From: Candidatus Eiseniibacteriota bacterium
GTDB taxonomy: Bacteria; Eisenbacteria; RBG-16-71-46; CAIMUX01; VGJL01
Assembly (NCBI GenBank): GCA_963792585.1
Contig: CAWBWI010000003.1
Span: 672,001-736,000, forward strand
Reading direction: 5' to 3'
DNA: 64,000 nucleotides
The number at the start of each line of letters is the position of its first letter. Positions within the stretch are counted from its first letter, which is position 1. Below the pieces are notes generated by a model, which searched no databases, was not told the origin of the DNA, and was given only the letters and a program-made list of their open reading frames with translations. Position numbers and translations under genes: made by a program. Below, in pieces: positions 9,456 to 30,048 of the stretch.

Positions 9456-10958
9456 TCAGTCCCGCGACGCACCCGATGCTGGGGTCTCTGACATGAGCTT
9501 CCGCATCCACTGGAAGACTGCCCACGTTGCATCCAGGTCTTCCTCGTTGTACTTAAGCACTTCGCCAACTAGGCGGTGTGCCTCTTCCCGATCCTCTGCA
9601 CTGACGGCGCGAATGTAGTTCGCGACGGCCCAGTCACCGCTCCCCGGGAGCGTGCGCTCGTACCCAACGTACTTCTCCACGACCTTGAGGCTCCTGCTGG
9701 GGAGCGGAACGCAAATTCCCTTCGAGTAGACGGTCAGGAGGTCGCAAAGACACCGCTCGATCCTTGCGGCGGTCCCATTCGGATCGCCGTACCGCTTCCG
9801 GTAGAGCCGGAGCTTCACGCCTTCGTACGAAGCCCAGTGGAGAATCGGGAGGTCGCCGTGGGCTGCGAAGAGGGACTCGGCCTTCTCCAGGAAGCCGAAC
9901 CAGGTCGCCTGGTCGTCCGTCTCGCCTGGCATCGTGTACGAGGCGGTGTACTCTGACGGCGCATTGCCATAGACCTTCATGCCCCAGAGGAAGATCTCCT
10001 CGGGGCCGTCCAGGAAGGGAGGAATTCCCTCAAGATCAAGGACGAGAAAGGCGCTCCCGGCGGGAAGTTCCGCGTCTCCGAGGAGCCGAGGAATGCCATC
10101 GAGGAAACACTGGGCTTCGACGAGGATCGGCCCAGCCCTCTTGCCGACACGTTGGATCTTGGTCTCACCCCAGGGCCGCTTGAGGTCGTGGAGTTCCTCG
10201 ACGCTCATCCGCGCCACGAGATCGGCGATCGTCGCGATGCCGCGCCCGTGGAGTTGTCGGGCGAGCCCCTGGTCAACATCAGGCAGCAGTGCCACCTCGT
10301 TCCGCTCCTCGGCCTCCTTCCAACACCGGTCGAAATATCCACACCCATGGCACTTGCTCCAGCCGATCGGTTCGTACGCGTCGTGCTGCCGAAGGGCGTC
10401 GAGGATGGCAGCGATGGAGGCCTGAACGCCGGCGTGGCCAACATACTCGACCCCGGAAATTGTACCATCGCCAAGCACGACCTCGAGCGCGGCCGGCGGT
10501 GCACCTGTTACCCGCTCGATGAGAGCGCCATAGAGGTTCATCTGGTCTGCGATCTCCGGGTGGTCCTCAAGCCTGCGGGTGAGCTTCACATCCCGGATAA
10601 TCCAGCCTTTGGGCGAGGGGATGGGGATTAGGAGATCCGGCTCTCCAACGAGTTGGACCTGCTCACCGCCAACGGTCATTCTTGAGCGAAGGAGACCGTG
10701 CGCCAGAATCCGCGTCCCTCCGCGTAGCTCTTCGAGCGTTCGAGCTTCCCGCTGTTCCCGCGGAACATCCTTCAGGTGGACGACATCAGGAAGCGCGTCG
10801 ATGTACCGCGCCTCATGCCGCAAGCCGAGGTCGATGACGATTTCTTCCAGCGGCCCAGGTGCGGCATGCGGAATCCCCCCTTCGATGAGGCGGAGCCGGC
10901 GGTAGCACTGACTTGGGCGTCGGAGTGTGTAGAGGGTGCTCCGAGTAATCTGCGCCAT
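9456..10958 (-). CDS. TM0106-family RecB-like nuclease with C-terminal RNase H-like domain
   Basis: GEPDLL...RDVK nuclease motif, KCHGCGYFDRC Cys cluster, then LDLEG, HWASYE, CDLL, SLKVVE, YNEEDL RNase_H_2-type motifs. Confidence 0.88.
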   Translation of the reverse strand: MAQITRSTLYTLRRPSQCYRRLRLIEGGIPHAAPGPLEEIVIDLGLRHEARYIDALPDVVHLKDVPREQREARTLEELRGGTRILAHGLLRSRMTVGGEQVQLVGEPDLLIPIPSPKGWIIRDVKLTRRLEDHPEIADQMNLYGALIERVTGAPPAALEVVLGDGTISGVEYVGHAGVQASIAAILDALRQHDAYEPIGWSKCHGCGYFDRCWKEAEERNEVALLPDVDQGLARQLHGRGIATIADLVARMSVEELHDLKRPWGETKIQRVGKRAGPILVEAQCFLDGIPRLLGDAELPAGSAFLVLDLEGIPPFLDGPEEIFLWGMKVYGNAPSEYTASYTMPGETDDQATWFGFLEKAESLFAAHGDLPILHWASYEGVKLRLYRKRYGDPNGTAARIERCLCDLLTVYSKGICVPLPSRSLKVVEKYVGYERTLPGSGDWAVANYIRAVSAEDREEAHRLVGEVLKYNEEDLDATWAVFQWMRKLMSETPASGASRD

Positions 10959-11690
10959 GGTCTGGGTCCTCGAGCTCACTTGTCCATGCACCGGGGCGTG
11001 TGTCCTTATGCGAAGCGGTCGGGCGGATCCCGGTGTGTCCACGCCCGTGCGGGACAACAAACCTCTCCGTCTGTCCACCGATTGTGGGACGGAGGTGGAA
11101 CCCGGCCCACCCAAGTCTGCACCGAGCGTCGTCACTCAAGAAAGGGATTTCAGAGGTCGCGGAACAACGGCGTGGAAGGCTTTCCCTGTCCCGAACCCTG
11201 GATGTGCACTAAATATGTGCAATGCGGACCCACACGGCACTATCTTGTGGCCCTACGGAGTCAGATCGCGACCAATCGGCCGTACACGAGAATAAGTGGA
11301 CAACATCCCCATCATTCCAAGACCCCGCTCGACGATCTGTTCAAGCGGGCATATCATGCGTGCGACTTCTCCAGGACGGGTCGCCGTTGGGGCTGCGGCT
11401 ACCTTCAGAGTGCGCGATTACGTCAATGGCAGATCTGGAGCCGCGTTGAAAGCCGCAAATTCATTTGGGTCGCAGCCTGCTGCCATCGTCCTCGCGACTG
11501 CTGGCGCGATCCCGTCTCTGTCCAACCACAGGTCAATCCCGGCAAAGCGCGGAACCTCTGCCTTTAGGGATCGGTCCCACGTGGCAATGGGGCGTGCTCC
11601 CCCCATTGGGTAAATCTATGGCTAATGGAGTTAACCAATCGTGAAACAAGGGTCAGAGTGGTGCTCTCAAGAGAAAGGACATTTCCTGCC

Positions 11691-14600
11691 ATGAAACGAG
11701 CATTGCACTGCATCATCGTGTTGCGAGCGTCTCTCGCGGTTGCCATCTTCGCATTTCTAAGTCCAGGCCATATCCTTGCAGGAAGAAACGCAGGCGGGGC
11801 GATCATCCTCCACACGAACGACAGCGTGGCATACACATATACGGGGCAGTACTGCTCCTTTGACTTCGACAATCCGGGTACGTGCGTTCAAGCTAATACG
11901 CGGACGGATCTTGCTGGAACTGGTGCCGATGCTGTGATTTGGGCGCTTGCGGCGTTTCCATCGGATTCGGATCCCGCAGTCACAAGCGTTGCATTCGGAA
12001 TCAGACTGAGCAACCGTCCGGATTTCACCTACATGGTCGATGACCATCGTTCGTGCGGTGGGCTTGAACTTCCGCTAGATGATTGGCCAAATCCGAACGA
12101 CCTGACGTCGGGGACGTTGATCACCTATGGAAGTCCTCCGATAAGGGAGCGTCTCTTCCCTGTCGTACTGGTTCGCGGTCTACGCGGACTCGGCCGGTAT
12201 GTCATTCAGCACGACGCAGTATCCCGACGGCCTTGCTGTGTTCGTTGATGACAGCTCACCACCTATCACGGATCCCATCGACAGATTCGGGAAAGTCGCA
12301 TGGAACACGGACGATGGGAGCAACAGCTGTCCGGAGGAAAATGAGACCCTGTTGTTTGAACTGTCCGGGACGCCATGCTGGACCTATCATGGCCGTTCGG
12401 TCAGTTCATTCGGCAAATCCGTCTCGACTGCGGGGGATGTTAACGGGGATGGCATTAGCGATGTAATTGTCGGGTCCCCTTCCGATGATACGCAGTTCCA
12501 GGACATGGGATCTGCGAGGGTATTTTTGGGGACGGCTGAATGCCTCGCGAGGAACCCAGTCTGGACCGAGCACGGCATTGCGGAGTGGGAGGAGTTTGGC
12601 GACGCAGTTAGTACTGCAGGCGATGTGAATGGTGACGGCTATTCCGACATCCTGGTCGGAGCGCCAAGCTACAATGGGAATACGGGCCGAGCAGCGCTCT
12701 ATCTCGGGTCGGCCCTGGGGATTGCGTCGACCCCGGTTTGGAATGTCGCAGGGCAATACCACGGAGATCGGTTCGGAGCCAGCGTTGCCACGGCCGGAGA
12801 TTTCAATGGCGACGGCTTCGATGATTGGGTGGTCGGCGCTCCGGGAGGTGACAAAGCTTATCTCTACCTAGGCGGTGCCGAAGGTCTGAGTTCTCTCTCG
12901 GCGAAGATCTGCTCTGACCAAGCGGGAGGCGACTCGTTTGGAACCTCAGTGCGAACGGCTGGTGATGTCAATGGAGACGGACTCGCGGACCTTATAGTCG
13001 GAGCGCCGAACTACTCCGGCGGTTACTCCCATGTGGGACGGGCATATCTGTACCTGGGACGGCACACCGATTTTGGCCAGGGTGCCGACTGGTACGTGAC
13101 CGGCCAACAAGAGGAAGCGTGCCTTGGGTTTTCTGCAAGTACAGCTGGCGATGTCAACGGCGATGGGTATAGCGATGTGATTATTGGCGTTTATGGGTAC
13201 GTTGAAAATGGGGAGGTCCGTGGAAAGGTAGGGATTTACGCAGGGGGGAGCGGAGGCCTCGCAACGGCGCCCGCGGCGACAGTCGTGGGCTCGGAGGCCA
13301 ATAGCCGCTTCGGTTTGGCTGTATCGACGGCAGGAGATGTCAATGGCGACGGGTACGCGGATGTTGTGGTTGGGGCGCTTGGCCACAGCAATGGGCAGAC
13401 GGAGGAAGGCGCCGCCTATGTCTATACGGGATCAGCTGGCTGGATCACCGCGAGTCCTTGGATAATCATCGAGAGCAACAACACCTATGGTTGGCTCGGC
13501 AGGTCCGTGGGCACCGGTGGTGATGTGGACGGGGATGGGTTTGGTGACATCCTTGTGGGGCTCCCAGGGTTCCATGGATCAGAGGACGAAGGGGAGCACT
13601 TCGGAGGGGCAGCTATCTATCGGGGTTCTGCGGGGCCGCCAGCGACGGTCTGCGAATGGTCCTCCGTCGGTGAAGGCGTGGATGCGTACCGGGGTCGTTC
13701 CATTGCCTCCGCCGGCGACGTCAATGGTGACGGCTATGATGACTTCATCGTCGGGGAGGAAGCCTATACGAATGGGCAGACTGACGAGGGTCGCGCACTT
13801 CTCTTCATGGGTTCGAGTTCCGGCTTGGCGGCGGAGCCTACATGGCAGGCCGAAGGGAACGCTACGGAGGCACGGTATGGCTATTCCGTAGCATCAGCGG
13901 GGGACGTCAACGGTGATGGGTATAGTGATGTTATCATCGGTGCATATAGGTACCCCGCTGGAGGACTGAGTCAATCCGGCAAGGCCTATGTCTATCTGGG
14001 TGGGAGTGGAGGACTGGGATCCACTCCATGGACAGCACAAGGTGACATGATCGATGCTTACTTCGGTTACTCGGTGGCAGGGGCTGGAGACCTCAACGGC
14101 GATGGATTCGGTGACGTTGTGATTGGTGCAGCGGCTTATACAAATCCACAAGTCAATGAGGGACGAGTCTATATATACCTGGGTAGTACGCAGGGTCTTG
14201 GAGCGAATCCATCGCTGACTATCGAAATGAACCACTCTGAAGGACGGTTTGGTAGTTGCGTTGCCGGTGCTGGGGACGTCAATGGGGATGGATACAGTGA
14301 CGTCATTGCGGGCACTTGGTACTGGAGTGGCGACGGGTCACTGACAGAAGAAGGGCGAGTGGATGTCTTCCTGGGGATGGCGGGGAGCGTAGGTCTGCAT
14401 GAGACCCCAACGTTCACAAGATATGGTGAATCCGCTCATGCATTTCTAGGACGATCTGTTGCCGGCGCCGGTGACGTTGATGGCGATGGGTTTGGCGATG
14501 TAATCGTTGGTGCATATGGAAAGCGTGCCTACTACGATCGAGAAGGAGAGGTCAGGGTCTACCGGGGAGTCGCAGATGGGATCGAAGACGATCCCGTGTG

Positions 14601-15651
14601 GGACATATTCGAGGGCAGCGAATATGCGTACCTCGGGTACAGCGTGGCCTCGGCTGGGGATGTCAATCTGGACGGTTACAGTGACATTGTCGTAAGCGCG
14701 GCAGGCTTGACGGATGGAGAGGACAATGAAGGCAAGGTGCGAGTATATCTTGGTGGAAGCGCAGGACCTGCGGACACTCCGGCGTGGGGTGTAGAAGGGA
14801 ATGAAGAAGATCTGTATTTTGGCACGTGCGTAGCCAACGCTGGTGACGCCGATGGCGACGGGTTCCCGGACCTTGCTGTCTCCACGGTCGACTACGACGG
14901 TGCCTATCAGAATGAGGGCAAAGTGTTTCTGTACATGGGGAATGGTGGTCAAGGGCCTGACCGAAGGCCGCAGCAGCGGAAGGTCAGGGGTGGGCCACTA
15001 GACGTCCTCGGAGCATCTGACAACCACTCTGCATTCTACCTCTCTGCATTAGGGCGGAGCGCCTATGGCAGGAACCGGGTGCGACTAGAATCCCAGATAG
15101 CACCGACCGGAACCGAATTAGGAACCGTCTCCATCGGTCGGGGAAGTTGGTGGCTCGCTGGGGCGCCCGATGGGCAGGCGGGAAGCAGGGTGGACCTCTC
15201 GACTGCAGCGGCGAGCCTCGGACCATCGACTGCCTATCATTGGAGGTTGCGTGTGGCCAGTGGATCTCCATACTTCCCATGGACGCCTTGGATGGCCGTG
15301 GCCAGGGCGCCTTACACGACGAAGCTGATGCGGACAGGAGCTCTCGTAACCGCGGACGTTACCAGTGGAACGACGGAGCCTGAAAGGGTAATGGCTGAGC
15401 CAAATCCCGCGACTTCCTTCGCACGGATCAGTTTTGTGTCGAAGACGCTGGGCCGTGTTCGGTGTCAGGTATTCGGAACCGACGGGAGACTCATCCGGAC
15501 GCTTGCGGATGGGGTCATGGACCCTGGGGAGCATACGATCATCTGGGATTCTCGCGATGACGCTGGGGCTCTCTCCAGCTCAGGGCTCTTCCTTATTAGA
15601 ATAGTCCATGATGGGGAGACAGAATGCTCCAAGATCACGCTAATCAGGTGA
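11691..15651 (+). CDS. Secreted FG-GAP (integrin-alpha-like) repeat protein with FlgD-Ig C-terminus; one frameshift at ~12165
   Basis: Signal peptide plus an N-terminal domain whose conserved-looking FPVYWFAVY motif is split by an extra G. 14 xGDxxGDG-type repeats (two 7-blade propellers). PNP...WDSRDDAG..SSGLF tail. Confidence 0.88.
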
Positions 15652-17128: not shown

Positions 17129-17158
17129 CTACACGCGACTACACGCGACTACACGCGA
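17129..17158. repeat. Three tandem copies of a 10-bp unit (CTACACGCGA)
   Basis: Read directly from the sequence. Ends 6 bp before a -35 box. Confidence 0.95.
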
Positions 17159-17164
17159 CGGATG

Positions 17165-17193
17165 TTGACAGCCCCTCGTTACCGACGTACGAT
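17165..17193 (+). promoter_or_regulatory. Sigma-70-type promoter
   Basis: TTGACA-17 bp-TACGAT, pointing toward the recombinase. Confidence 0.7.
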
Positions 17194-17208
17194 TGAAGTT
17201 GCTCAACC

Positions 17209-17410
17209 CTGCGCCCTTTGGCGATTCCGTGCAGTCCCGCTCCGCTGGTCTCGAAGGCCGCCTCGAACACCGTGGAACGCGGGCTTTCCGACACTTCCGT
17301 GACGCGTAGTCCTGACCCCGCGACTTGAGTCCTGTCCCTCCTCGGCACACGCAACTCCCTTATTCCTAAGCCATTACCAAACCACCGCACCCTTTCGCCA
17401 AAGGGCGCGG
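17209..17410. repeat. Pair of inverted 26-bp recombination-site-like sequences (17209-17234 and 17385-17410); candidate invertible segment
   Basis: CTGCGCCCTT-TGGCGA-TTCCGTGCAG and CCGCACCCTT-TCGCCA-AAGGGCGCGG: a perfect 14-bp inverted core, 20/26 identity overall. Confidence 0.75.
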
Positions 17411-17435
17411 CTCCGTTGCCCCTCAAACCCTCCCC

Positions 17436-18053
17436 TTGCCCTCATTTAACGCTCCGATTCAGCGCTTGCCTCGATATCTCACGCAGGAAGAGACCCGCGC
17501 GTTCTTCCGTGTGATTGACGATCCCCGCGACCGGGCGCTCTTCACGTTCATCTACCTGTACGGCCTTCGCGTCGCCGAGGTCGGTCTGCACCTCGTCGGC
17601 GATGTCGACATCGTCCGAGGACGCATCGTCATCAAGCGGTTGAAGGGCGGCGCGTGGGCCGAACGCCCACTCTTCTCACGCCTCCGTGAGTTGCTTGAGG
17701 CCCACGTCGCAGCCCTTTCGAGGGCGACCCCGGATGCTCCGCTCTTCCCGGGTAACCGCGGGCCGCTCCGGAAGCGGCAGATCCAGTCGTTGTTCACGCG
17801 GTACCGAGATCTGGCGGATCTTCCGCGCAGTGCTACGACGCACTCCCTGCGCCATTCGATCGCCACCCACCTCCTCGACGCCGGGGTGTCCCTGGAGTTC
17901 GTCCAGGACCACCTCGGTCATCAGTCGATTCGCTCGACCTCGATCTACGCGCGGATCACTGACCACCACCGAGCCGCGCTCTTCCTCGAACTCGAACGCT
18001 CGCCCTGGATCGTGCAGTCGGGTGGATCGGACCCGGCAGCCGCACACGAATAG
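17436..18053 (+). CDS. Small tyrosine recombinase (catalytic domain only, FimB/FimE-sized)
   Basis: YGLRVAE (R), LKGG (K), HSLRH, LGH, TSIY (Y). 205 aa. Confidence 0.92.
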   Translation: MPSFNAPIQRLPRYLTQEETRAFFRVIDDPRDRALFTFIYLYGLRVAEVGLHLVGDVDIVRGRIVIKRLKGGAWAERPLFSRLRELLEAHVAALSRATPDAPLFPGNRGPLRKRQIQSLFTRYRDLADLPRSATTHSLRHSIATHLLDAGVSLEFVQDHLGHQSIRSTSIYARITDHHRAALFLELERSPWIVQSGGSDPAAAHE

Positions 18054-18063
18054 GAGGCCGACC

Positions 18064-19923
18064 ATGACCCGAGGACTCTCGTTGTTCATCCTGGCATTCC
18101 TGCTCCTCGTCGGGTGCGGAAGCGACCCGGAGAAGCCGCCTGTCACGCCGCCCCAGCCCGATACGACCGCGCCGGCAGCCGTGACGGATCTCGCCGTCTC
18201 GGCCACGACGGACTCGAGCGCGACGCTCACCTGGACCGCGCCGGGCGACGACAACAGCACGGGAACCGTGACATGGTTCGACGTTCGGTATTCACATATG
18301 CCGATCGCGCCCGACCGATGGGGCGCGGCTCAGTCGGGCCACGCGCGACCGGGGCACCCGGAGTCGCTGCCGGCCGGAGCCAGGATGAGCTTCACCGTCA
18401 CCGGCATCCCGCCGGGGATGACGTACTACTTTGCGCTCAAGGCTGCGGACGAGGAGCAGAACTGGTCGGATCAGTCGAACGTCGCAACGGCCGCGGTGGG
18501 ACCCGACGCGATTCCACCAACCGGCGTCGGGGATCTGCATGCCGTGGCGACGACGGATTCATCCGCGACCATCGCGTGGACCGCCACGGGCGACGATTGG
18601 GACATCGGAACAGCCTCCGGCTACGATCTCCGCATCGCCGGAACGCGCGAAGAACTCTTCGACAACCGGTGGGACGCCGCATCGCAGGTCGAGGGTGAGC
18701 CTCTGCCGCAGCCGACCGGATCAGCCGAGGCCATGACGATCTCCGGACTCGAACCGGGAACTACGTACTTCGCGAGGATTCGGGCCGAGGACGAGCAAGG
18801 CAACGGGACCCGGAGCAACATCGCCGAGATCCGGACCACCGACTCTGAAGCCGAGGCCGCAGACGCCCACTGGCTCGACGTCTTCGGCGGCACCGGTCCG
18901 GACGATTCGGTCACCGCGCTGTATCCGCACGATGGCGCCCTCATGGTGGGCGGCGGCTTCCGCTTCGTCGCCGGGGTCGAGGCCCGGGGGATCGCCCGCT
19001 GGGACGGAGCGACCTGGCAGGCAATGGGCGAATTCCGGCGGCATGGCAGCGTCCGAAGCCAGGGCCCGGCCGCCTTCGCCGAGTTCAATGGCGCGCTCGT
19101 GGCCGGCGGTCCGTTCGAGTGGATTGTAAACTCGGACCAGAGCGTCTCGTATGCAATGCACATCGCCGAGTGGCGGAACGGATCCTGGTCCGAATTGGGC
19201 TCGGGCTGGGGCACGGACGACTACGGCGTCACCTGCTCCGCATTCCAGCCGTACAATGGCTCGCTCGTGGTCGGCGGCACGGTCATCGTCATCGGAACCA
19301 CGTACGACTATGTCGACGCCTGGGACGGGACCCGCTGGCACTTGGGCGGCGGTGTGAGTGGTCCGGTGAACGCGCTGACGCTGTTCCGTGGCGACCTCAT
19401 CGTCGCCGGCGCCTTCCTCCGCACCTCAACAGTCGTCGTCCGGTCCATCGTCAGATACGACGGCTCGGGCCCGCAGGGTTGGTATCCGCTCGGCGCCGGA
19501 ATCGGACAGGGCGCCGGACAAGCCGTGCAGGCACTCGCGGTCTTCCAAGATGAGCTCTACGCGGCGGGAAGTTTCAGAACCGCCGGCAATCACGGCGTGG
19601 GCGGCATCGCGAAGTGGAACGGGATCGAGTGGAGCCGTCCAGGCGCTTACGAGGACGAGTGGGACCACCAGTATCCGAACATCTCGGCTCTCGCCGTTTA
19701 CAACGGTCGCCTCATCGTCGGCGGCAACTACAGCAACCGATTCCGTAGTTGCATCGCAACCTGGGACGGCACGACTTGGGGCAAGCTGGGCACGGGCATC
19801 GGCGCGGGGTCAGGGGATGTCGTCACGGCGCTCACCGTCCACGATGGAAAGCTCTATGTTGGCGGGACGTTCACACGAGCTGGAGACAAGACGGTCCAAA
19901 ACGTCGCGTGCTGGTCCGAATAG
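18064..19923 (+). CDS. Lipoprotein with two FN3 domains and a C-terminal beta-propeller
   Basis: Lipobox LVGC, two LTWTAPGDD...YYFA-type FN3 units, repeated L.VGG.F...IA.WDG..W blades. SD GGAGG. Confidence 0.85.
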   Translation: MTRGLSLFILAFLLLVGCGSDPEKPPVTPPQPDTTAPAAVTDLAVSATTDSSATLTWTAPGDDNSTGTVTWFDVRYSHMPIAPDRWGAAQSGHARPGHPESLPAGARMSFTVTGIPPGMTYYFALKAADEEQNWSDQSNVATAAVGPDAIPPTGVGDLHAVATTDSSATIAWTATGDDWDIGTASGYDLRIAGTREELFDNRWDAASQVEGEPLPQPTGSAEAMTISGLEPGTTYFARIRAEDEQGNGTRSNIAEIRTTDSEAEAADAHWLDVFGGTGPDDSVTALYPHDGALMVGGGFRFVAGVEARGIARWDGATWQAMGEFRRHGSVRSQGPAAFAEFNGALVAGGPFEWIVNSDQSVSYAMHIAEWRNGSWSELGSGWGTDDYGVTCSAFQPYNGSLVVGGTVIVIGTTYDYVDAWDGTRWHLGGGVSGPVNALTLFRGDLIVAGAFLRTSTVVVRSIVRYDGSGPQGWYPLGAGIGQGAGQAVQALAVFQDELYAAGSFRTAGNHGVGGIAKWNGIEWSRPGAYEDEWDHQYPNISALAVYNGRLIVGGNYSNRFRSCIATWDGTTWGKLGTGIGAGSGDVVTALTVHDGKLYVGGTFTRAGDKTVQNVACWSE

Positions 19924-26799: not shown

Positions 26800-27162
26800 C
26801 TACGGGCAGGTAATCGGGCCGATCTCAATGGAGTCGCTGGACTGCTCGCCGTTGCACGTGCAGAACATGGTTACGCGGTAGTAGTAGCCACTTCCGCAGC
26901 CGGCGAAAGGACCGCAATCGACGTAGGGTGAAGATCCGTACGGCGACCCGATGAGAAGCCAGGTGCCGCCGGGGCCGCACTTGCGCTCAATGTTGAACCA
27001 CAGCAGACTGCACCCGTCGAGATTCGAAGTCCAGGACACGTTCACGCAGTTTCCATTGCAGGCCAGCTGCCCATTGGAGATGTCGCAGGCGCCGGCAAGC
27101 GAGCCGAAGGCGCTGAGGAGAAGCGCAACTGCAATCATCCCGAAGAACGTTCTGATTCGCAT
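26800..27162 (-). CDS. Secreted Cys-rich FN3-like mini-protein 1 (ends GPITCP)
   Basis: Signal peptide, 10 Cys in the mature part, W..FNIERKC...W...Y.D...YYRV pattern. SD AGGA. Confidence 0.85.
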   Translation of the reverse strand: MRIRTFFGMIAVALLLSAFGSLAGACDISNGQLACNGNCVNVSWTSNLDGCSLLWFNIERKCGPGGTWLLIGSPYGSSPYVDCGPFAGCGSGYYYRVTMFCTCNGEQSSDSIEIGPITCP

Positions 27163-28229
27163 GGTAAGTCTCTTCCTTTCCAGATAGTAGGTTTGACCGA
27201 TGACTTGTCACCAGGATTCCGAGTAACCCATGCGGAGGGCCGCGGCAGGGCCGGGCACCAAGCTGATCAAGGTCCTTTCCTGTCCGGTCACGTGACCTCT
27301 CGACGGACCAGCCGGCCACCGCGGATTGGCAGGAGCTACTGCGCGTCCGACCGGTTTCAGGTGTGGCCCGGAATCCGGCCCCGTACCGACTTCCCAGCAT
27401 GAATCCCGGAGAGCACGAATAAGGTGCAGTTGCTACCTCGGGTGCTGCAAAAGCAGACACTTGCGGATCACCAAGGGCCGGTGCGCGTGGAACCGCAACT
27501 ACCTCATCCATGCCAGAGGGGGCAGAGCTTGGCGTGACGGAGGTTACGAATAAGAACTCCTCGCGGGCCGGCACCACAATCCCGTCCTTTCAGTATTCAT
27601 GGCCGCGGAAAGCTCCGGTACTTGCCATCACATGTGCGACCATGGCCGCAGAACGCATTCGCGCACCCCAGGACGCTCGTGCATGAAGCATGCCGCTGGG
27701 GAGTGGGGCTGCGATCCGTCTCGCAACGTGGCCCGGTTCGTGCGATTCAATCTGCAAACGACCCGATCGTGGGGCAAGTCCTCGTTCGTCATGTCGCCCT
27801 TTGTTGCTTGTCATTGAAAACCCATGTTGACATTCCGAGGTGTCCAAGTCTTCCGCGGCCCCGATTGCGTCATCGTAACCATCAGCGGCAATGGTGGCGC
27901 TCTCCTTCCATGTGATCATCCAAGACCCATGATCGGAGCACTGGGGACGCGCACCGTAATTGTGCAAACGATCGTGCTACCGCACAAATGCGAGGCCATT
28001 TCAGCCACCGAACGAATTCACATAATGTGTAGGCAATCGATCGGGAAACCGATCGTTAGCAATTCCAGAGCGTGGATGACAGTGCCGGCCATGCCATAAA
28101 GTATCCTGCGGCTTGAGCCAGATTCCAGATGAGCTTGGAACGTAGACTTAATGCCACGAATACGCTTGATGTGCGACGAACAGCCGGATTATAGACGCGA
28201 ATGTGACGAGTCGGTCGTGAGCTGGGCCC

Positions 28230-28245
28230 TGGCACAGTCCGTGCT
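28230..28245 (+). promoter_or_regulatory. Sigma-54-type -24/-12 promoter
   Basis: TGGCACAGTCCGTGCT (GG-N10-GC), 130 bp upstream of mini-protein 2. Confidence 0.55.
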
Positions 28246-28374
28246 CGGTTCTCGAACGGGTCACGTGAAGCGTGTCCCGCTCGCGAGCCGGACGGTGTGG
28301 TGCGTCTTCCAAGGACGCGCACTCCAGGAAGGACCGCCCAGGCCGCGAGGGTCTCCGAAACGGAGGAATCCGAC

Positions 28375-28734
28375 ATGCGTGCTGGCATCTTCCTTCTCAC
28401 GCTCCTTCTTCTCGGATCCTGTTTCCTTGTGTCGGCCCGCGCCGATGACGGCTGCGGCCACGTCTATGACGGCCGCTACTCCTGTAGTGACGCGGCGATC
28501 AACATCAGCTGGTCTGCCGTCATCGAGCAGGGCTGTACGCCCACCTTCACGATCCAGCGGAAATGCGGCACTTCGGGGACGTACACGACGATTGAGACCG
28601 ATTGGGATGGACTGAGCTACACGGACAAGCCGAACACGGGCTGCCTCTTCGGCTGGTACTACAAGATCACGATCCACTGCTCGGACTGCCCGGGCGGGGA
28701 TTCCATCGTCATTGGTCCCATAACCTGTCCGTAG
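28375..28734 (+). CDS. Secreted Cys-rich FN3-like mini-protein 2 (ends GPITCP)
   Basis: SD GGAGG, signal peptide ending ARA, 8 mature Cys, paralogous to 26800-27162. Confidence 0.87.
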   Translation: MRAGIFLLTLLLLGSCFLVSARADDGCGHVYDGRYSCSDAAINISWSAVIEQGCTPTFTIQRKCGTSGTYTTIETDWDGLSYTDKPNTGCLFGWYYKITIHCSDCPGGDSIVIGPITCP

Positions 28735-28931
28735 TTGGAACGGCATGAGGCGGAGGCGAGCGAAGCCGCCTGGTCGGGGGCGCTGCAGGCCGGGGAATGG
28801 TGCCACACCCTTGCTGTCGTGTGTACCCGCGTCCGGGTGTCCACGGAGTTCCGGTTCGACCCCGGTCGGACCGTCGCTCATGGCATCCCGCCGCCGAGCG
28901 AAGGCTGCCTGTCTCCTTCAAGTGCCACGCG

Positions 28932-29111
28932 ACTCGGGCCGCGCATCCACTTGGGCCGCTCGAAGGAAGGGAGGAACGATTCTTCGTCTCCGGCCGAACC
29001 GAGACGGTCGGATTCTCGACCCCCTTCGCGGAGGAGGTTCCAAGCTTCTGGCATCGGGGAGACGCAGCTTCCCGATGCGCCGAGCGCCTGGGTGGATGGC
29101 GGTCCGTGAGT
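28932..29111 (+). ncRNA. Putative structured RNA or leader element (long closing stem with G-U pairs, internal hairpins)
   Basis: 28932-28962 pairs with 29081-29111 using several G-U wobbles. Internal hairpins include CGTCTC/GAGACG and GCATCGGG/CCCGATGC. Confidence 0.4.
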
Positions 29112-29151
29112 GTGCGAATGGTCGAAGGTCAAATTGCCAAGGAGGATTCCC

Positions 29152-29520
29152 ATGAAGCGGTTCACTCTGGGTGTTGTGGTTGCTTCCATTCTGTTGGCCG
29201 GCGGCGCACTTGTGGGGTCCGCCCAGGCCATGGAGTGCAAGCTGGTGCCGATCGAACCGGCGATCACCTGCGACGGATCTTGTCATGTCGTCGTCTGGTC
29301 CTACACGTGCAACTGCGGCACGCCGACGTTTAACATCGAACGCAGCTGCTGCGGGGATCGGTGGGCGACCATCGCGACGAACGTCACCGGCTCGAGCTAC
29401 AACGACTGTTCGTCGAACTGTGGAACAACGCGGTACCGGATCACCATGAATTGCCCCCCTACCTGCACGTGTACCGGTTCCCTCACCTACACGACAGCCG
29501 ACTGTAAGACGTGCCCATAA
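29152..29520 (+). CDS. Secreted Cys-rich FN3-like mini-protein 3 (ends CKTCP)
   Basis: SD AGGAGG, signal peptide ending AQA, 14 mature Cys, TPTFNIERSC...WATI...YND...YRIT. Confidence 0.87.
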   Translation: MKRFTLGVVVASILLAGGALVGSAQAMECKLVPIEPAITCDGSCHVVVWSYTCNCGTPTFNIERSCCGDRWATIATNVTGSSYNDCSSNCGTTRYRITMNCPPTCTCTGSLTYTTADCKTCP

Positions 29521-29679
29521 CAAGCTGAACGAGCGCTCAAGGCGAAATCCCTGAGTGCGATCGTAAGGGGATGCGAACGGCCGGGGAGTCCGGCGATCCT
29601 GACTCTCCGGCTACACCGAGGCGGTCCGGGCGCTCCGTCCAGAACGGGCCGGTTCCCGGACCTGAAAGGAGAGTCCATC

Positions 29680-30048
29680 GTGATACGCAAGTTGGTCGCG
29701 AGTCTTGTCGTTGCGGGCCTCTTCGCAATTCTCCCGAACATCGTTCTCGGGGAGACCTGCACGTTCAACGGAACGCTCCACGGTTCCTGTTACACGCACC
29801 AGGGACAGACCTGCTTCATCTTTCACTTCGTTATCCAGGCATCGGAGGATTGCGAACCATGGACGGTCGATGCCTACCGCGTTCCGGTCACAGGCTCGCA
29901 CTGGACGCTCGTGGGGCAGGATATCCACAATGATTGGTTTGACTGCCCTAACTGGTCCGAGGGTCCGTTCGACTACAAACTCGTCCTGACCTGCAAGGGC
30001 TGTGGGAAGACGGAAGCGGCGTATCTGCAGGGAATTGACTGCCCGTAG
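29680..30048 (+). CDS. Secreted Cys-rich FN3-like mini-protein 4 (ends GIDCP)
   Basis: SD AAGGAG before the GTG, signal peptide, 8 mature Cys, YR...WTLVG...FDC...DYKL. Confidence 0.85.
   Translation: MIRKLVASLVVAGLFAILPNIVLGETCTFNGTLHGSCYTHQGQTCFIFHFVIQASEDCEPWTVDAYRVPVTGSHWTLVGQDIHNDWFDCPNWSEGPFDYKLVLTCKGCGKTEAAYLQGIDCP

Follow-up and report, generated by a model that had tools for sequence, protein, structure and literature searches.

Features of the locus

The DNA analysed here (the window) is a 64,000-nucleotide stretch of one contig from a Candidatus Eiseniibacteriota bacterium. It contains a compact cassette of a promoter, a pair of inverted sites, a short tyrosine recombinase gene and a predicted lipoprotein gene (Table 1). 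The sites had been placed by the initial annotation at 17209-17234 and 17385-17410, and the pair proved real: in inverted orientation the two agree at 20 of the 26 positions, their spacers TGGCGA and TCGCCA lie 170 bp apart, and the right site is followed after 25 bp by the TTG at 17436. The 10-bp arms originally assigned to them were refined to 11 bp, giving 28-bp sites with an 11-6-11 layout. Inverted pairs are common (98 in 4 kb) and a single repeat is unremarkable by itself. When the whole 5.4-Mb genome was searched with a site profile, only four sites were found, two for each copy of the recombinase (the window gene and a paralogue).

Table 1. Positions, in window coordinates, of the cassette features
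Feature	Position	Strand	Remarks
Fixed sigma-70-type promoter, TTGACA-17-TACGAT	17165..17193	+	Outside the invertible segment; putative function
Predicted transcription start	~17200	+	Just 5' of the left site
Left recombination site	17208..17235	+	11-bp arm, spacer TGGCGA (17219-17224), 11-bp arm
Invertible leader segment, 170 bp	17225..17394		Deposited C-rich (predicted OFF); C-G skew +0.30
Hidden GTG	17346..17348	-	In the recombinase frame once inverted; +55 residues, 260 aa in total; putative start codon
Hidden Shine-Dalgarno-like AAGGGAG	17355..17361	-	Points at the recombinase only once inverted; anti-SD duplex -7.9 kcal/mol
Right recombination site	17384..17411	+	Spacer TCGCCA (17395-17400); fixed codon phase to the recombinase; would be translated in the ON state
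Linker before the downstream start	17412..17435	+	Pyrimidine-rich, without stop, without SD
Tyrosine recombinase, catalytic domain only	17436..18053	+	205 aa from an SD-less TTG; PF00589
Cargo SD	18053-18057		Cargo's own; abuts the recombinase stop
Cargo, predicted lipoprotein	18064..19923	+	619 aa; lipobox LVGC, two FN3, weak beta-propeller signal

The paralogous cassette of the same genome (L017, G000 C2:110204-111020) encodes an enzyme 80% identical to that of the window and also has the spacer TGGCGA, with a different cargo, a lipoprotein with FN3 and BNR/sortilin repeats. The common spacer would allow cross-flipping between the two copies, and large rearrangements too if synapsis were not local.

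Several other features of the window were recorded. A 10-bp unit is repeated three times in tandem directly 5' of the promoter (17131-17160). A 559-aa protein with PD-(D/E)XK nuclease and RNase H-like domains is encoded on the minus strand at 9456-11135. At 11625-15651, a 207-aa ORF with a signal peptide runs, in a different frame, into the beginning of the gene for a 1150-aa FG-GAP repeat protein; the two may be a single gene broken by a frameshift or by an error of sequencing. The stretch 26800-30048 encodes four small proteins that look secreted, each of 120-145 aa with 8-15 cysteines; three are paralogues (31-38% identity), and the set matched no Pfam family and no other genome copies at E 1e-3.

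The recombinase

The window recombinase scored 99.1 bits against PF00589 (Pfam cut-off 27.1), and its catalytic residues (R45, K70, H136, R139, H162 and Y171) were invariant in an alignment with 11 homologues. The structure model comprised a catalytic domain only, without a core-binding domain; a Foldseek search matched it to 4a8e (E 2e-9), and Xer catalytic domains were closest by both sequence and fold. By its catalytic residues and its integrase catalytic fold, the protein is a member of the tyrosine recombinase superfamily.

FimB and FimE are about 200 aa long, and the initial annotation had likened the enzyme to them; the likeness in size was borne out (205 aa), that in family was not, since both tyrosine-type invertase models of NCBIfam, PRK09870 and PRK09871, which we take to be FimB and FimE, were missed (53.8 vs 221 and 51.6 vs 222 bits). 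The integron integrase model (84.8 vs 265 bits) and all the NCBIfam Xer cut-offs were missed as well (XerC 104.1 vs 335, XerD 84.3 vs 330, XerA 107.4 vs 220 bits). The dif site has an 11-6-11 layout, and the cassette resembles XerC/XerD/XerA with dif in this respect and in its nearest catalytic domains; unlike those systems, it has no core-binding domain, falls below the Xer cut-offs, and has closely spaced inverted pairs with homomeric-looking palindromic arms. A search for a dif site of the host with a short motif returned nothing convincing. In the part of PMC8138268 that was available, tyrosine recombinases are classed as proteins with a core-binding and a catalytic domain, and the group described here is not shown there.

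Conservation of the sites

The initial annotation had suggested that the same sites be sought upstream of homologous recombinases. Loci were drawn from genomes (16), metagenomes (the best 80 of 256), the phylum (14 of 206 genomes) and the paralogue. Duplicates and L013, L014 and L134 (<55% identity) were left out before counting, as were L016 and 18 viral loci, which lay under the tblastn threshold. A scored site pair was present in 76 of the 95 non-duplicate homologous loci (window and paralogue included); 14 loci were cut by a contig end and five (L068, L097, L006, L008 and L086) had no scored pair despite enough DNA. Degenerate pairs with matching spacers were seen in L068 and L097, and a right site alone, with the left site absent and an intact-looking recombinase, in L006 and L008. 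Named records of the cassette family were mostly from Ca. Eisenbacteria. A protein search gave 1258 matches at E <= 1e-30 among 8000 scored, more distant integrases included.

The site profile had been trained on arms from 13 loci and did not include the spacer, so the spacers provide an independent test. The two spacers were reverse-complementary in 76 of 76 site pairs, although 16 different spacers occur and the chance of agreement between loci is 0.24. On a protein tree from which six broken or truncated loci were omitted, the spacer changed 25 times. Strand exchange by tyrosine recombinases needs spacer identity, and binding does not.

The interiors between the sites were largely unrelated (45 clusters), and their lengths fell into groups at 126-130, 138-139, 146-151, 157-161 and 168-171 bp. 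This stepping has a period of 10.5-11 bp (Rayleigh R 0.77 over 45 independent interiors, against a null 99.9% quantile of 0.45), as would be expected if the two sites had to be aligned on the helix through a short loop. Neither the genome of the window (G000) nor 345 kb of loci yielded a further site of at least 18 bits. Judged by these regularities of sequence, the paired sites are taken to be real recombination sites.

Some genomes carry two cassettes, which may share a spacer (L063 and L089, on one contig about 17 kb apart) or differ in it (L128 and L131). A single site of high score, with TGGGAA as a new spacer, was found at 442-469 of L143 (G008:C100). A promoter lies just to its left, transposase-like DNA is next to it and a complete cassette follows after about 2 kb, so that it resembles what is left of a second cassette. 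In L134 (G076), a short recombinase with 44% identity is preceded by a promoter and a palindrome, with no matching site pair, and is possibly another regulatory design.

Both orientations in relatives

The segment of the window has a C-G skew of +0.30, against a genome background of 0.00 +/- 0.11. The top strand of the interior had more C than G in 72 of the 76 loci, the window among them; L053 was near neutral, and L057, L060 and L023 were strongly reversed. The 73 C-rich or near-neutral loci were treated as OFF. The interior of L057 aligned to those of L076, L035 and L056 only when reversed (score 105 vs 27), and that of L023 aligned to L040 in the same manner (75 vs 31); for L060 no clear reversed partner turned up (37 vs 23). 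The inner arms of L057 were swapped exactly at the spacers, while the outer flank remained collinear with L056 and L047. L057 and L023 are each sister to C-rich loci on the protein tree. To judge from these assemblies, both orientations occur among close relatives.

For the window itself, a search of read sets found the locus in one set, X1, at a share of 0.34, and no RNA set was among the matches listed. Three runs, for which contigs at a depth of about 4 were used, too low to be meaningful, gave no flipped joint at the locus or its paralogue. The left site of the window was bridged by one contig, in the deposited orientation. The invertible phase-variation switch that had first been proposed is strongly supported by the co-varying spacers, the reversed interiors in relatives and a promoter outside the segment, and the window cassette is very likely an inversion switch.

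Translation start of the recombinase

Inversion of the window segment in silico removed an in-frame stop at 17367 and placed AAGGGAG 6 bases 5' of an in-frame GTG; the 16S 3' end of this genome has the canonical anti-SD. The same arrangement was sought in the family as an SD of -7 kcal/mol or better with a start codon and an open frame (an SD-start), with L088 omitted (75 loci). The G-rich orientation is natural in three loci and was computed by inversion for the remainder. In this orientation an SD-start was present in the recombinase frame in 62/75 loci, against 7 and 3 in the other frames, 0 in the C-rich orientation and 8.7 +/- 2.5 (maximum 15) in dinucleotide shuffles. With one representative per interior cluster the counts were 33/45, against 6 and 3 in the other frames and 0 in the C-rich orientation. 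Thirteen of the 75 loci missed the -7 threshold. Among the loci without a scored pair, L068 gained no in-frame start on flipping and L097 was out of phase; L006 and L008, whose interiors are C-rich and without an SD-start, are possibly locked OFF.

The right spacer keeps a single codon phase to the recombinase in 73/76 loci while segment length is spread evenly over the three classes modulo 3 (28/26/22), which limits the translational constraint to the right site. The downstream (annotated) start had an SD in 0/68 loci. L137, from a Planctomycetia-labelled MAG (54% identity), has the same plan in a natural G-rich state; L138 and L140, which are 51% identical and lack the sites, have an ordinary strong SD before an ATG; and the database protein P0087 has an N-terminal extension with the ON-junction residues of the window's spacer clade.

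The recombinase frame was open across the whole flipped segment in 35/76 loci, against 5/76; the other flipped frames were open in 22 and 23 of 73, so this was weaker than it first seemed and the SD-start test took its place. Accessibility predictions gave the ON SD no advantage over the sequence around it (0.34 vs 0.35, 33/65 loci; co-transcriptionally 0.43 vs 0.40, 41/65), and that of the window was predicted to be paired. The idea that the extension supplies a conserved peptide or adds a core-binding domain was rejected because lengths and sequences vary. From the SD-start counts and the phase of the right site, it is likely that the switch moves the translation start of the recombinase.

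A different use of the two orientations would be to make two isoforms, a short enzyme from the SD-less start when C-rich and an N-terminally extended enzyme when G-rich, which would differ in stability or direction so that one gene did the jobs of both FimB and FimE. With L015, L088 and L093 omitted from the start-codon and accessibility tests, the downstream start codon was ATG in 27, GTG in 19 and TTG in 17 of 73 loci, with none in 10 (two of those ten being missed ATGs); the 27 ATGs favour this reading, as ATG accounts for only 50 of 13448 codons in these genes. In 59/65 loci the downstream start was also predicted to be paired when the segment is G-rich and more open when it is C-rich, a difference that is partly due to base composition. 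Ahead of the right spacer the extension varies between 5 and 41 codons, without conserved sequence, and 8-10 of the 73 loci have no downstream start, which makes the existence of two working isoforms unlikely. If the C-rich orientation is OFF, expression in that state may still not be very low, because the SD-less start is conserved (63/73) and predicted to be more open when C-rich.

The leader RNA

The initial annotation had guessed that a leader or a terminator was flipped. The leader was the better guess, and can be narrowed to the SD and start of the recombinase; no intrinsic terminator was seen in the deposited (C-rich) sequence. Rho is present in the window's genome. C-rich interiors had weaker folding in 73/76 loci and more YC dimers in 75/76, so that an untranslated C-rich leader looks, by composition, like a Rho loading site.

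The cassette might accordingly be viewed as mainly a Rho-terminator leader switch like C. difficile flgB, in which the C-rich strand is a rut site, the in-frame start merely keeps ribosomes on the leader and the feedback on the recombinase is a side effect. The excess of C over G runs across the whole interior in 72/76 loci, and there is a precedent in the available part of PMC12360218. Any frame would shield the RNA, yet the SD-start lies in the recombinase frame and the phase of the right site is kept; as the principal function, Rho termination is improbable. The two readings are not exclusive, and Rho termination is compatible with a self-resetting switch acting through the recombinase start.

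A candidate IHF site had been spotted by eye in the segment. The IHF consensus was not clearly enriched (19 loci vs 16.6 +/- 3.2 at two mismatches, 5 vs 1.2 at one), and the candidate gained no support.

Cargo and mobility

The first downstream gene was lipobox-like by a loose pattern in 49/63 loci. Domains in the cargo, sampled in 32 of the 63, were FN3, Big_9, ASH/HYDIN Ig, PD40, PEGA, BNR and beta-helix, and nine cargo proteins had no family. The cargo start overlapped the recombinase stop in 24/63 loci. In 39/63 the two genes do not overlap, and an SD of its own precedes the cargo gene in most loci, so translational coupling alone cannot explain control of the cargo.

The enzyme is patchily distributed in the phylum (14/206 genomes), and a strict site pattern was found in 8/206 genomes, all within the 14 enzyme carriers, which is an association only. 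The upstream flanks were unrelated (42 clusters in 44 loci). The patchy distribution and unrelated flanks imply that the cassette moves or is copied and that its cargo is exchanged.

The same two observations, together with the overlap of the promoter with the left site, could be taken to mean that the sites are operators, attachment sites or the ends of a mobile element rather than substrates of inversion. Co-variation of the spacers would be needed for strand exchange and not for binding, and reversed interiors occur naturally. Signs of excision or integration were also sought: neither the genome nor 345 kb of loci contained a third site, and a tRNA was nearby in only 1/43 long loci. A phage origin was rejected because the viral matches were distant (24-42% identical). 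Sites that serve some purpose other than inversion are therefore very improbable.

The promoter

The near-consensus promoter that had been noted outside the left site held up. Taken alone it is weak evidence (one found vs 0.4 expected in shuffles); in 52/72 loci a like promoter lay beyond the left site and at most 55 nt from it, against 0/320 control windows. A fimS-type invertible promoter inside the segment, the textbook layout for enzymes of this size, is scarcely credible, as inside matches were found in only 2 (C-rich) and 1 (G-rich) of 72 loci in a scan for sigma-70-type promoters.

Proposed mechanism

The cassette is probably a self-resetting inversion switch, of which the G-rich orientation would make recombinase and lipoprotein and the C-rich orientation little of either. 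On sequence grounds this appears to be the best explanation for the site pair, the co-varying spacers, the two orientations, the outside promoter and an in-frame SD-start in the G-rich orientation only. As one orientation only has a predicted ribosome binding site and start, a flip likely turns on the lipoprotein together with the enzyme that flips the segment back.

The fixed promoter would transcribe the invertible leader, and the adjacent enzyme would recombine the sites through a short loop, the length of which would have to keep helical phase. In the G-rich orientation, ribosomes would load inside the segment, read across the right site and make the recombinase. The recombinase would then invert the segment; landing in the C-rich orientation would end strong synthesis, and that state would persist. 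Rare OFF-to-ON flips might depend on enzyme made at a basal level from the conserved SD-less start, or on a paralogue. The cargo would follow through translational coupling, Rho polarity on the untranslated C-rich leader, or both; in OFF, Rho acting on that leader could keep the cargo silent. Enzyme bound at the left site, which the promoter adjoins, may in addition lower transcription, although this is speculation.

Since the ON state would raise the recombinase that flips the segment, ON would be short-lived and most cells would be OFF. The mechanism predicts an OFF majority, and 73/76 assemblies are in the OFF state; site asymmetry or selection against the cargo could be another cause of this bias. 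More likely than not, the cassette is a natural pulse generator. In this reading it looks mobile, keeps the recombinase's own start on the inverted DNA and, by negative feedback, turns on a swappable lipoprotein for a short time in a small share of the cells; its natural spacers number at least 16, and a rule of helical phase would confine recombination to nearby sites. Synthetic circuits are so far the main source of such designs.

Comparison with known switches

In E. coli fimS, the promoter is flipped, the two enzymes are encoded outside the segment and upstream of it, and feedback acts at the 3' end of the fimE mRNA. The present cassette is like fimS with FimB/FimE in that a short segment would be inverted by an adjacent small tyrosine recombinase with a surface output, and in that ON would raise the recombinase. 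Unlike fimS, it has one enzyme, encoded downstream, a fixed promoter, and a segment that holds the enzyme's own SD and start. The portions available of the respective sources give a length of 314 bp for fimS (PMC9993118), more recombinase in its ON state (PMC9881135) and Rho termination in its OFF state (PMC12360218).

The cassette also resembles C. difficile cwpV and flgB, which are switched by RecV and which, in the available parts of PMC2784873 and PMC12360218, likewise combine an upstream promoter, a transcribed leader that flips, a tyrosine recombinase and a surface output. The cwpV segment contains neither promoter nor ORF and has an intrinsic terminator (PMC2784873, as far as the available text goes). 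As recV is unlinked, cwpV has no feedback in cis; in the present cassette the recombinase gene is linked, and on inversion the segment would supply its opening codons. The cassette belongs neither to the fimS class nor to the cwpV/flgB class.

Two inversions have been proposed to alter a recombinase itself. At the BREX pglX inversion locus of Lacticaseibacillus rhamnosus, a change in the recombinase's own level by transcriptional fusion to the operon is proposed in the available part of PMC9881135, and for the intragenic inverton of Bacteroides BT0375, the accessible text of 10.1101/2023.03.11.532203 (PMC10028968) proposes a change in recombinase sequence through 57 bp of internal recoding. 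In neither of those does the enzyme's translation start move, as it would here. In synthetic single-invertase memory modules and in Salmonella hin, expression of the recombinase depends on the DNA that is flipped, and the segment encloses the entire gene, against the translation start alone in the present cassette.

A literature search of main texts, mostly those outside subscription journals, found no paper on this recombinase family or on a natural segment carrying the SD and start of its recombinase. The available parts of PMC11868660 and PMC2845655 held nothing specific to such cassettes, and that of PMC11892184 gave no match. The inverton tables of PhaVa or of Milman et al. may list related loci.

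Implications

If this mechanism is correct, the recombinase's own translation initiation joins the promoter, the terminator and the coding swap as an output of inversion. The cassette would be a natural minimal switch that limits its own ON time, and would make the question of switching bias testable in one 0.9-kb unit. Compact recombinases of about 200 aa, with 28-bp sites and many natural spacers, are candidate tools. Gene callers would be assigning wrong starts to the enzymes, and inverton scans that rely on reads from isolates would overlook the cassettes. For the organisms themselves, the finding would mean that a mainly environmental phylum, uncultured and hardly surveyed for such switches, varies its surface lipoproteins by programmed phase variation.
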